64,000 bases of DNA from the sequence record PQ724392.1; one strand, given 5' to 3'. The stretch is from a phage. A program made the translations under genes and the position numbers. Below, piece by piece: positions 6,658-61,654 of the stretch. How positions within the stretch are numbered: position 1 is the stretch's first letter; every line of letters begins with the position of its first letter. A model generated the notes under the pieces. It did not search any database, had not been told where the DNA came from, and saw only the letters and a list, made by a program, of their open reading frames with translations.

Positions 6658-6665
6658 TATTTATA
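6658..6665 (-). promoter_or_regulatory. late promoter -10 element TATAAATA
   Basis: Exact TATAAATA on gene-sense strand about 30 nt upstream of soc ATG. Confidence 0.5.
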
Positions 6666-8814: not shown

Positions 8815-8835
8815 ATAACACCCCCTTTCCGCTAT

Positions 8836-9027
8836 TTATACAATGAAGATAGCTTTATTGCCATTTGCATCAGTCACTTCATAGGTGTCTTCATGATACA
8901 ACGGAATAATCCAGGTAACACCATCATCAGCGATAACATGGATTGCTTCTTGGTCTTGCGACACGATTTCATATTCTTCAAAAATCTGGAAGACCGAAAT
9001 CTTAGAGCCCGTACACATTGCAGTCAT
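8836..9027 (-). CDS. hypothetical protein
   Basis: 63-aa ORF co-oriented. Confidence 0.35.
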   Translation of the reverse strand: MTAMCTGSKISVFQIFEEYEIVSQDQEAIHVIADDGVTWIIPLYHEDTYEVTDANGNKAIFIV

Positions 9028-44604: not shown

Positions 44605-44630
44605 AGCGGAATACTAGTTAGTAACTGTAT

Positions 44631-44906
44631 TTATAATCTTTTAAATTTGAAACAATACATTGCAAATAAATCAGAAAAATGTCTATCAACCCATATTCTT
44701 TGCACTGGACTAGTCACAGTCAGCATATAATGTGATTTTTGTAAATTTATTCCATTTTTATTCGGGCATTCTTTATTAACAGAATGGTACGTGCTTGCTA
44801 CTATTTCAATTTCCCTTTCATATCTCTCGCTATCTGTTTGTGTGGGAATAAATGCAATTCCAGCAATAACAAAAATAGAGATATACGTCCAAACCTTGTA
44901 TACCAT
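44631..44906 (-). CDS. small membrane protein
   Basis: 91 aa with N-terminal hydrophobic helix; between tk and rI. Confidence 0.4.
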   Translation of the reverse strand: MVYKVWTYISIFVIAGIAFIPTQTDSERYEREIEIVASTYHSVNKECPNKNGINLQKSHYMLTVTSPVQRIWVDRHFSDLFAMYCFKFKRL

Positions 44907-60536: not shown

Positions 60537-60560
60537 ACGTTTCTCTTTAGTTGATTTATA

Positions 60561-60588
60561 AAAAAGCCCCAACCTTTCGGAAGGGGCT
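60561..60588 (-). terminator. stem-loop terminator
   Basis: AGCCCC-loop-GGGGCT followed by TTTTTT on gene-sense strand. Confidence 0.5.
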
Positions 60589-60625
60589 ATACCTTGTCGG
60601 GGTTCCACCTGCAAGGCAAGTGTTC

Positions 60626-61009
60626 TTATCCGCGAGCGAATGCCATTGCAGCGCGTTCGTTGGCACGGTCGGTGATGTTCAAGAATTTATCACGAGCGAT
60701 TTCGATTGGAGCGCCAACCCAGTCAGCAGCTCCATTACCCGGAGACTGTTTAGGGCGAACCATATAAGTTGAAACTTTGGAACCGGCTAGTTTGGCACCT
60801 GGCGCCGCGGCATTTTTAACGTCTTTAGCTTTGATGCCAAACCCAGTTACGATACCCCAAGAAACGCCATTAACTGGTTTCTTGAACATAACACGGTCAC
60901 CAATTGAAACACCGGCTTTTTCTGGAGCCACTAAAGAAAATTTACCAGCTTCAGTCAGTACAGATTCGGTGATGGTATTGCGATTTAAAAATTCTGCATA
61001 TGTAAGCAT
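60626..61009 (-). CDS. hypothetical protein with CTS-like N-terminus
   Basis: 127 aa starting MLTYAEFLNR; exact TATAAATA upstream. Confidence 0.45.
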   Translation of the reverse strand: MLTYAEFLNRNTITESVLTEAGKFSLVAPEKAGVSIGDRVMFKKPVNGVSWGIVTGFGIKAKDVKNAAAPGAKLAGSKVSTYMVRPKQSPGNGAADWVGAPIEIARDKFLNITDRANERAAMAFARG

Positions 61010-61030
61010 TTTGTTTTTCCATTATTAGGG

Positions 61031-61038
61031 TTGTTGTT
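61031..61038 (-). promoter_or_regulatory. late promoter -10 element TATAAATA
   Basis: Exact TATAAATA on gene-sense strand about 25 nt upstream of ATG 61009. Confidence 0.45.
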
Positions 61039-61049
61039 AATATTTATAT

Positions 61050-61240
61050 TCCATAGTACCGGATGCACCATCCGCTCGGATTTCTCATACTACCGGGCGC
61101 ACCGCCCGCTCTGGAAAAACTCCGTAAAAGGGTGCGCCGTTTCAGCTGTGGTAGTAAAGAACCAGAACACAGTAAAACTGTGGGAGGAACTATACTTCAG
61201 GGAACTTCAGTCCGACGACTTACCGGTAGCGACCCGGTTT
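61050..61240 (-). other. structured intergenic element with paired hairpin repeats
   Basis: Two ~24-nt direct repeats each folding into a short hairpin with CAC loop, plus downstream complement of the second; no ORF; adjacent to tRNAs. Strand not determined. Confidence 0.3.
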
Positions 61241-61241
61241 C

Positions 61242-61481
61242 TCATTCAATTGTAATAGCTAATTTGACTTTAACAACCTTATAATTGGAATCAAGGTCAT
61301 TGAATTCCATAAAATTTGTTGCTAATCTGCGAGTCGGGAAACTTAGATATTTATTATGCTCAGGTGGAGCAGTTAATGCAAACCATGGGACTTGTTTATC
61401 ATTTTCATCAAACTCATCAAAGCTATAAACCAGCTCGTTGTTGGTTATATCCATAACTGCATATGATTCACTAATAACCAT
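61242..61481 (-). CDS. hypothetical acidic protein
   Basis: Start moved to MVISESY; the ORF-track N-terminal extension is the reverse complement of tRNA-Arg. Confidence 0.4.
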   Translation of the reverse strand: MVISESYAVMDITNNELVYSFDEFDENDKQVPWFALTAPPEHNKYLSFPTRRLATNFMEFNDLDSNYKVVKVKLAITIE

Positions 61482-61486
61482 AATAT

Positions 61487-61563
61487 CCTCGGTAATTGGT
61501 CGGGGTGGTGGGATTCTAACCCACAACCTACGGTTTAGAAGACCGTTGCTCTATACAATTGAG
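61487..61563 (-). tRNA. tRNA-Arg (anticodon TCT), CCA encoded
   Basis: Folded by hand: acceptor CGGGGTG/CACCCCG, D-arm GCTC/GAGC, anticodon stem ACGGT/ACCGT with loop CTTCTAA, T-arm GTGGG/CCCAC, discriminator A + CCA. Confidence 0.8.
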
Positions 61564-61565
61564 CT

Positions 61566-61639
61566 ACACCCCGGGTGGCCCCATCCGGACTTGAACCGGA
61601 AACCTGCCAGTTATGAGCCGGATGCTCTAACCAATTGAG
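61566..61639 (-). tRNA. tRNA with anticodon CAT (Met or lysidine-type Ile)
   Basis: Folded by hand: acceptor GGCCCTG/TGGGGCC (two G-U), D-loop with GG, anticodon loop CTCATAA, T-arm TCCGG-TTCAAGT-CCGGA; 2-nt spacer to tRNA-Arg. Confidence 0.7.
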
Positions 61640-61654
61640 CTACAGGGCCTAAAA

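Follow-up and report, generated by a model that had tools for sequence, protein, structure and literature searches.

The element described here lies at positions 61050-61240 of a 64,000-nt stretch of phage DNA (sequence record PQ724392.1; the whole stretch is referred to as the window), where an earlier note, made from the sequence alone, had marked a structured element free of open reading frames (ORFs), with hairpin repeats, next to the tRNA genes. Over the 1.15 kb that surround the element, identity is 99% to Escherichia phage EAWsc9, which is the closest genome, and 92-99% to approximately 15 other members of Gaprivervirus (Straboviridae, T4-like), and the window is assigned to this T4-like genus. 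The interval comprises two unrelated features of the minus strand: a segment assigned below to the stable RNA gene rnaD (61131-61245), and the untranslated leader of a small gene cassette (61010-61130), in which the hairpins are found.

Two tRNA genes were detected in the window by both ARAGORN and Rfam, tRNA-Met/Ile2(CAT) at 61574-61649 and tRNA-Arg(TCT) at 61497-61573. Both are on the minus strand, which also carries every plausible gene near the element; the earlier note had worked on the plus strand, but it is the minus strand that is transcribed. Read 5' to 3' on this strand, the two tRNAs come first, followed by a 79-aa ORF (ORF79, 61481 to 61242), the flagged non-coding stretch (61241 to 61010), a 127-aa ORF (ORF127, 61009 to 60626) and a strong terminator. 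The placement of the element beside the tRNA genes was therefore right for the region, but the tRNAs lie approximately 390 nt upstream, with ORF79 intervening. The terminator, read from the sequence as GCCCC...GGGGC followed by U6 (60560-60587, minus strand), is homologous to those of phages P479, SP18, RB3 and IME341; it is the first one downstream of the tRNA-rnaD unit, and in other phages it follows directly after rnaC or rnaD. The description of the interval as ORF-free holds in the sense that matters. Although mechanical ORFs of 73-74 aa (plus strand) and 26-28 aa (minus strand) overlap it, no reading frame is kept among the relatives, as these show 1-nt indels and a central segment that is swapped wholesale (lengths 109-118 nt). 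The tRNA with the CAT anticodon is called tRNA-Met by ARAGORN and in several GenBank records, and tRNA-Ile2 (the lysidine-type AUA reader) in the EAWsc9 record; its T4 counterpart is likewise regarded as a tRNA-Ile2.

The segment 61131-61245 of the minus strand can be assigned as the orthologue of rnaD, which encodes the species 2 stable RNA of T4 and RB3. When 61010-61260 was used as a BLAST query, 742 phage records were matched; 16 of these span the full query, and the remainder match query positions 122-237 or 188-237 alone. The blastn matches in RB3 and RB5 land on the annotated 'rnaD, species II RNA', which in both is located directly after tRNA-Arg(UCU) and before rnaC. In an alignment to RB3 rnaD the 5' 45 nt are kept (93-98% identity to the annotated rnaD of RB3 and T4-like phages), as are the 3' 20 nt, and the central segment is non-homologous; the conserved 5' part reads GAARCCGGGUCGCUACCGG-AAGUCGUCGGACUG and the conserved 3' end CACAGCWGAAACGGCGCACC. 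The window copy is likewise downstream of tRNA-Arg(UCU) on the same strand, with ORF79 in between, and in TH40, L257 and L267 the same rnaD directly adjoins the tRNA. A consensus fold of nine distinct rnaD sequences (RNAalifold) has 19 pairs, four of them with compensatory changes, and is made up, all within 61131-61245, of a 5' hairpin CCGG-GUCGCUA-CCGG, a terminal helix GUCGUCG/CGGCG(C)AC, a 4-bp AGUU/AGCU helix with U-A/A-U covariation, and a variable, lineage-specific central hairpin of which there are three unrelated versions. The covariance model built from this set (R1) scores the window at 61131-61241 with 120.8 bits, and with it two Dhakavirus genomes were seen to hold independent copies, scoring 116-131 bits.

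This part of the interval is already known. No function is known for the two stable RNAs of T4, RNA C and RNA D (PMC3014915); they accumulate late, and RNA-seq as well as northern blotting have shown RNAD in T4 (PMC9697503), while a laboratory-evolved T4-like phage gained a convergent single-nucleotide polymorphism in rnaD (PMC12685909). The suggestion in the earlier note of a T4-type small stable RNA was thus correct for 61131-61245, but the hairpin repeats on which it had been based are outside rnaD and unrelated to rnaC.

Two observations concern rnaD itself. The central ~50 nt (61150-61200 of the window, minus strand; also loci L127, L134 and L273) are occupied by one of three mutually non-homologous hairpin modules between the conserved ends: a window/IME341 type, a T4/RB3/MN01 type and a P479/SP18/L257 type, which recombine freely with whatever is downstream. 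Another compensated variant of the window type, GCCUG/CAGGC, is present in TH41 and UPEC01. In addition, a candidate sigma-70-like promoter, TTGTTA-16-TACAAT (61249-61276, minus strand), was found by consensus scan within the 3' end of ORF79, ending approximately 5 nt before the rnaD 5' end. It could provide rnaD with its own start where an ORF parts it from tRNA-Arg, although matches to this consensus occur at a frequency close to the chance rate.

Downstream of rnaD, the slot between its 3' end and the sequence ACACTTGCC (60620-61130 in the window; loci L134, L135, L272 and L273) has three states with identical borders, GGCGCACC on one side and ACACTTGCC on the other. In the first, GGCGCACC is followed by rnaC (approximately 140 nt) and then by ACACTTGCC and the terminator, as seen in the Gapriverviruses P479 and SP18, the T4-like phages SA20RB and RB3, and the Dhakavirus PSD2002. 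In the second, found in Dhakavirus IME341, nothing lies between the borders, which read GGCGCACC-GA-ACACTTGCC. In the third, which is that of the window and 15 relatives, GGCGCACC is followed by C UUUUACGGAG UUUUUCCAGAG, two hairpins (A and B), the octamer TATAAATA, a 31-nt leader and ORF127, and then by GA-ACACTTGCC. The hairpins are thus the start of a cassette of approximately 500 nt (hairpins, late promoter and ORF127) that has replaced rnaC in this sub-lineage. The cassette is found with all three central modules of rnaD and in two upstream contexts, in which either ORF79 or tRNA-Arg is directly adjacent. Since the slot may hold rnaC, nothing, or a late-gene cassette, rnaC is dispensable and replaceable in nature. 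Both ends of rnaD are kept under every arrangement of the slot and rnaC is not, which constrains ideas on the roles of the two RNAs.

The two direct repeats that had been reported were recovered by a repeat search as tandem units of 26 nt at 61052-61077 and 61086-61111 (together 61052-61111, minus strand), which are 81% identical and have a period of 34 nt. Each folds, as had been noted, into a short hairpin with a 6-bp stem and a 3-nt loop, which is CAC on the plus strand and GUG on the transcribed minus strand. Hairpin A, CGGGCG-GUG-CGCCCG, is at 61094-61108 (-11.4 kcal/mol) and hairpin B, CGGAUG-GUG-CAUCCG, at 61060-61074 (-7.9 kcal/mol). The copies differ at two adjacent stem pairs, both of which are compensated (GGGCG/CGCCC in one and GGATG/CATCC in the other), again in agreement with the earlier note, and they share the flanks GAG on the 5' side and GGUA(G/C)UAUG on the 3' side. 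Even with two mismatches allowed, there are only two matches to the core pattern CCGGNNGCACCNNCCGCTC in the 64 kb, at 61059-61077 and 61093-61111 (expectation 0.01; 0 of 100 shuffles). Between the rnaD 3' end and hairpin A is the spacer C UUUUACGGAG UUUUUCCAGAG (61109-61130), the first part of which, on the UUUUACGGAG side, varies among relatives and the second part of which is invariant.

Folding and covariance across related phages, proposed as a check, was carried out on the stretch between the rnaD 3' end and the ORF127 ATG, for which there are 15 distinct haplotypes. Both hairpins are conserved throughout, with standard pairing in 100% of cells in both stems, and every change in the stems keeps pairing on the minus-strand RNA. 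Nine haplotypes have G-C as the third pair of hairpin A and the other six have A-U, without intermediates; in hairpin B this pair is A-U in 13 and G.U in two (genomes TH44, L257 and TH40). Three one-sided substitutions occur in the proposed helices, each of which yields a G.U pair on the minus-strand RNA; on the plus strand each would be an A.C mismatch. The GUG loops, the closing pairs and the flanks (GAG 5' and GGUA 3') are identical between copies and over all haplotypes. As the one-sided changes are exclusively to G.U, and as the two differences between the copies are compensated, the hairpins are probably selected as RNA on the sense (minus) strand, for which this is modest but consistent evidence. 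Folding energy of the whole region is unremarkable on either strand when compared with shuffles (z = -0.8 and -1.6), and the signal resides in conservation and covariation rather than in stability.

This strand bias bears on whether the element acts on the DNA, or not at all; it might be a scar of recombination or a duplication where the cassette borders its surroundings, might form a cruciform, or might be a site of homing or recombination. The hairpins do stand at the border of a presence/absence polymorphism which shuffles freely with three rnaD types and two upstream contexts, and in T4-type genomes cassette shuffling is known to take place at promoter/stem-loop motifs present in several copies, or PeSLs (PMC2839356, PMC4122927). 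However, because the G.U variants keep pairing in sense-strand RNA only, a DNA hairpin or a symmetric protein-binding site is disfavoured, and the motif is not repeated elsewhere in the genome, in E. coli or, among the matches listed, in other phage contexts. We regard this as the least credible of the explanations considered here.

Several known classes of element were examined and rejected. The hairpins are not intrinsic terminators, as they are followed by GUAGUAUGAG and GUACUAUGGA with no U-tract after either, and neither is reported by a terminator scan. A strong site for RegB was discounted, as the sole GGAG in the spacer reads GGAGUUUUUCC and does not conform to the consensus GG*AGRAYARAA (PMC3014915). 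A tRNA-like or tmRNA gene was rejected, with ARAGORN finding the two tRNAs only; in Rfam, too, the gathering score was reached by these two tRNAs only, and nothing was reported over 61010-61250 even at E <= 10. An origin in the host, or as a repetitive extragenic palindromic (REP) element, was likewise rejected, the motif being unmatched in 5,426 E. coli genomes. In the IMG/VR and JGI/ENA metagenomes, among the approximately 130 matches listed for a loose form of the hairpin pattern, all but those in VR20 were chance matches in G+C-rich DNA, and the variable stem positions were complementary in 4 of approximately 125 listed; in IMG/VR, the 18-mer pattern described below gave nothing but chance matches. 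Separately, an unrelated viral contig (L018, 7884-8028; IMGVR_UViG_3300045806_000119) has three loose-pattern matches exactly 63 nt apart at its end, which suggests a tandem or CRISPR-like array.

The earlier note had also pointed to ggtgcgcc, downstream of the repeats on the plus strand, as the reverse complement of part of the second hairpin, and had proposed a switch between alternative pairings. The 8-nt match of GGTGCGCC (61131-61138) to GGCGCACC (61096-61103) is real, but is weakly above chance (p ~0.02 against dinucleotide shuffles, in a test chosen post hoc), and the segment is the invariant 3' end of rnaD, which is kept also in phages that lack the hairpins. In such a switch the rnaD 3' end GGCGCACC (61138 to 61131) would pair with GGUGCGCC in hairpin A (61103 to 61096), or in trans with the GGUGC loops, and the mutually exclusive folds would couple rnaD maturation to downstream events. 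The pairing is a perfect 8-nt complement that can be formed in 15 of 15 haplotypes through G.U changes; it dominates the minimum free energy (MFE) fold once rnaD is included, and hairpin B is also complementary at 7 of 8 positions. Against this, no compensatory change supports it, it occupies a strand that rnaD needs for its own terminal helix, which explains why GGCGCACC is invariant in hairpin-less phages, and its self-complementary GCGC core inflates chance matches. The chance that this pairing works as a switch is accordingly put very low.

The remainder of the cassette offers a different function for the hairpins. An exact T4-type late promoter consensus, TATAAATA, is located at 61041-61048 (61048 to 61041 on the minus strand), 3' of hairpin B and 31 nt upstream of the ORF127 ATG, and is invariant in the 15 haplotypes. 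The octamer occurs four times in the 64-kb window (6658-6665, 8833-8840, 44628-44635 and 61041-61048), each time on the minus strand, which is the coding strand, and 16-70 nt upstream of an ORF start; this pattern would suit isolated late promoters within a stretch of mostly early genes.

The cargo of the cassette, ORF127 (60626-61009, minus strand), encodes an orphan protein of 127 aa that is found in exactly 16 phage records at 99-100% amino-acid identity. Its DNA varies at 41 of 384 columns, yet there are 0-1 amino-acid changes over the 16 phages, a pattern that marks it as a real gene under very strong purifying selection. It has no match in Pfam or PHROG, and searches of 5.8 and 1.8 billion proteins yielded four relatives only, of which three are distant (P0003, P0004 and P0005; 38-47% identity). 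Each of these three is encoded on a T4-like metagenomic contig, in two cases again with tRNA genes adjacent. An AlphaFold model from five sequences (pLDDT 71) predicts an SH3/KOW/Tudor-like barrel with a C-terminal helix; a single-sequence model was useless (pLDDT 36). No structural neighbour of the predicted fold was significant, the best having E = 0.06 in the PDB and 0.018 in BFVD, with TM-scores of at most 0.41.

The spacer upstream of hairpin A contains a sequence complementary to the translation initiation region of ORF127. The 5' arm, GUUUUUCCA (61120 to 61112, minus strand), lies just 5' of hairpin A, and the 3' arm, UGGAAAAAC (61013-61021, read from 61021 to 61013), includes the Shine-Dalgarno sequence of ORF127, a weak GGA eight nt before the ATG. 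The two arms were recovered in the repeat search as a 9-nt perfect inverted repeat, with TATAAATA between them. In both the MFE and the centroid fold of 61130 to 60995 they form a 9-bp helix that closes a multiloop with hairpins A and B inside. A perfect complement of at least 9 nt between the 82 nt upstream and the initiation region is found in 0.8% of dinucleotide shuffles (p = 0.008), and one that covers the GGA in 0.16% (p = 0.0016); the RNAduplex energy between the segments is -17.7 kcal/mol, where shuffles average -10.2 (p = 0.0065). Opening the initiation region is predicted to cost 6.2 kcal/mol on a read-through RNA and 3.1 on the late transcript, and a transcript begun approximately 6 nt past TATAAATA is essentially unstructured (-2.8 kcal/mol). 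Between the tRNAs and ORF127 there is no canonical terminator, the sole terminator-like hit on the minus strand being the weak central hairpin of rnaD.

Leaders of this kind are known from T4, in which the ribosome-binding sites of e, soc, 49 and I-TevI are sequestered on early read-through transcripts, and late transcripts that start within the structure are translated (PMC3014915). We tentatively favour a similar role here, namely that the leader masks ORF127 translation on read-through transcripts, and place the probability of this at roughly 45%. As no terminator parts the tRNA/rnaD unit from ORF127, early and middle transcripts from this heavily transcribed unit would run into the gene, with rnaD being processed out of the tRNA-region transcript. 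On the read-through RNA, GUUUUUCCA would pair with the Shine-Dalgarno-containing UGGAAAAAC, and hairpins A and B would fold within the 90-nt loop and draw the arms together, giving a compact multi-helix domain to which ribosomes would have less access. Late transcripts would begin approximately 6 nt downstream of TATAAATA, within the domain, and would therefore lack the 5' arm and both hairpins; being essentially unstructured, they would be translated.

An imperfect inverted repeat of 19 nt (79% complementary), at 61017-61035 and 61272-61290, was also seen to flank the whole rnaD and hairpin segment. One arm is in the ORF127 leader, including the Shine-Dalgarno region, and the other in the 3' end of ORF79; as the upstream arm is also found in phages without the cassette, the repeat may be a coincidence.

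An independent lineage provides a comparison for the leader. On contig L274, upstream of P0005, whose product is 40% identical to that of ORF127, there is an exact 18-mer, TTCCAGAGCGGGCGGTGC, whose counterpart in the window takes in the last part of the 5' arm together with the 5' half and the loop of hairpin A. Among the non-coding similarities between the window and L274 loci it alone is significant (E = 3e-6 within the compared sequences). The 18-mer is followed by a mini-hairpin, a late-promoter-like sequence, AATAAATA, and the leader CCCCCUCUCUAUAAGGAA. In the MFE fold, UUCCAGAG.GGG of the 18-mer pairs with CCC.CUCU....GGAA of the leader, which is the Shine-Dalgarno region, so that the predicted long-range helix again holds this region, with the promoter in the loop (duplex energy p = 0.03). 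A search with the covariance model found no rnaD beside any of the distant ORF127 homologues, L274 included, and as L274 lacks a detectable rnaD the motif travels with the gene and not with rnaD. Elsewhere on this contig, approximately 275 nt of hairpin-rich non-coding sequence (1225-1500) follow tRNA-Arg(TCT) and a 56-aa ORF. This stretch holds AAGUCGUCAG...CUGACG, which resembles the rnaD terminal helix, and is unmatched by the rnaD covariance model; it may encode different small RNAs.

Several points weigh against a masking leader. The masking effect is weak by prediction, as the 9-bp helix is mostly A-U and marginal, with a probability of ~0.5 in the window. This falls to ~0 in 4 of 12 relatives (MN01, TH55, P8 and TH54), as the lengths of the U5/A5 runs (homopolymer indels) or a C to U change perturb an arm, and is also ~0 when rnaD is attached, hairpin A being invaded in that case by the 3' end of rnaD. 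Long and late transcripts differ in opening energy by only 1-3 kcal/mol, and there is no compensatory double change in the long-range helix, eight of whose nine pairs never vary in the 15 haplotypes. Neither the duplication of the hairpins with identical loops and flanks, nor the exact 18-mer in L274 despite its altered pairing partner, is explained by masking alone. The family members on L271 and L270 have late-promoter-like sequences but no comparable upstream complement, and every one of the complementarity tests was selected after seeing the data. Because of these weaknesses several rival explanations are kept open.

The place of the hairpins suggests that they could instead serve the RNA upstream of them, by forming or protecting the 3' ends of the tRNA-ORF79-rnaD transcripts and blocking 3'-to-5' exonucleases after a cut in the flanking A/U-rich stretches. 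In that case they would take over the role that the structured rnaC and the terminator have in other phages, and would help to define the rnaD 3' end. They start 22 nt past this end, in the rnaC slot, and the linker that precedes them is U-rich and variable, as would be expected of an unstructured processing site; the stems are stable, G+C-rich and selected on the sense strand, and L271 has a terminator hairpin at the equivalent place, between the tRNA region and the late promoter of its ORF127 homologue. On the other hand, the missing U-tracts mean that these are not intrinsic terminators, IME341 has rnaD followed directly by the old terminator region, the L274 18-mer accompanies an ORF127 homologue with no detectable rnaD, and the 9-nt complementarity to the Shine-Dalgarno region is left unexplained. 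A role in 3'-end formation is therefore considered unlikely, but it is the rival to be taken most seriously.

Alternatively, the hairpin segment (approximately 61050-61125) might itself be a small stable RNA of approximately 75 nt, which would be cut from the tRNA-region precursor and replace rnaC functionally, as would agree with the small RNA suggested in the earlier note. Its place and size suit the T4 cluster of tRNAs and stable RNAs, and its sense-strand structure is conserved. However, an alignment of the hairpin region with rnaC is no better than with shuffles (p ~0.48), there is no Rfam match even at E = 10, and there are no tRNA-like acceptor or T-arm features to direct RNase P or CCA addition. 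The segment is moreover always linked to ORF127, and the L274 18-mer sits in a gene leader. For these reasons an independent small RNA is thought highly improbable.

Another possibility is that the hairpins, or the 18-nt motif UUCCAGAGCGGGCGGUGC, are an operator for a sequence-specific RNA- or DNA-binding protein, possibly a member of the ORF127 family itself. Autogenous control of this type is exerted in T4 by gp32, gp43 and RegA. Motif and gene family are inherited together in two lineages whose proteins are only 40% identical; both copies share the loops, closing pairs, G.G mismatch and flanks, while the middle stem pairs alone vary, and do so with compensation; and the tandem duplication suggests cooperative binding. 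The barrel predicted for ORF127 is also of an SH3/KOW/Tudor-like type, a fold that often serves in nucleic-acid binding. Set against these points, the matches to the fold are the non-significant ones given above, the hairpin itself is not kept in L274, and L271 and L270 are without the motif. Furthermore, as the translated late transcript would lack the hairpins, late expression could not be autoregulated through them. An operator is thus judged rather improbable, ranking below a role at the 3' end.

A broader and more speculative idea, which we rate lower again, is that the twin hairpins with the exact 18-nt core are a specific recognition element and not a mere structural spacer, being either the operator of the ORF127 protein or a docking site at which the GGUGC loops would receive the GCACC 3' end of RNA D. 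If the docking version were true, a T4 stable RNA that has gone without an assigned function for approximately 50 years would have its first molecular target.

Taken together, the hairpins are an RNA structure that is under selection and specific to this lineage, located in the leader of the late-gene cassette by which rnaC has been replaced, and most plausibly they form part of a T4-style silencing leader. The analysis also marks a tiny, strongly constrained orphan protein family that is repeatedly located beside phage tRNA genes. It leaves the field unchanged and is of ordinary to moderate significance, its worth lying mainly in a correct annotation and a cheap experiment.

The two features can be compared with several known systems. 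The rnaD copy shares with that of T4 its 5' 45 nt, its 3' end CACAGCWGAAACGGCGCACC, its place downstream of tRNA-Arg(UCU) and a common secondary structure with covariation; it differs in that its central ~50 nt are another hairpin module, non-homologous to that of T4 and common to Dhakavirus IME341, and in that it is parted from tRNA-Arg by the 79-aa ORF and followed by the cassette instead of rnaC. The cassette in turn sits in exactly the genomic slot of T4 rnaC (the species 1 stable RNA), but it has neither sequence similarity to rnaC nor the tRNA-like T-arm of the latter (CCGGGTTCGAATCCCGG), and it encodes a protein.

Like REP-type palindromes and the hairpins that stabilise mRNA 3' ends, the repeats are short, G+C-rich, imperfectly repeated intergenic palindromes that would be transcribed and are without U-runs. 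Unlike REP elements, they have no copies elsewhere in the 64 kb or in the 5,426 E. coli genomes, their stems are of 6 bp with a triloop where those of REPs are longer, and the GTAG-like tetranucleotide is on the opposite side. The cassette also resembles a PeSL in being a small orphan gene flanked by promoter and stem-loop signals, which is carried by some close relatives and missing from others and lies in a hyperplastic region (PMC2839356, PMC4122927). It was nevertheless rejected as one because its promoter is of the wrong class, late and not early; in addition, the stem-loops lack a U-tract, and the motif is unrepeated in the 64 kb and, among the matches listed from public phage data, found only in this context. 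As it occurs once per genome, it cannot, unlike a PeSL, mediate recombination between repeated copies.

The leader itself can be compared with those of T4 e, soc, 49 and I-TevI. As in these, a putative late promoter lies a few tens of nt before the start codon, and the Shine-Dalgarno region has a complement located before the late start, which would be absent from the late transcript. The differences are that the known cases have one local stem-loop, whereas here 90 nt separate the arms and two autonomous hairpins bridge them, and that the helix here is A-U-rich and, by prediction, only marginally stable. If the masking reading is true, it would extend the silencing of T4 late genes on read-through transcripts to a bipartite, long-range architecture, of which two stems, one 9-bp helix and one promoter would form a compact and easily tested example.

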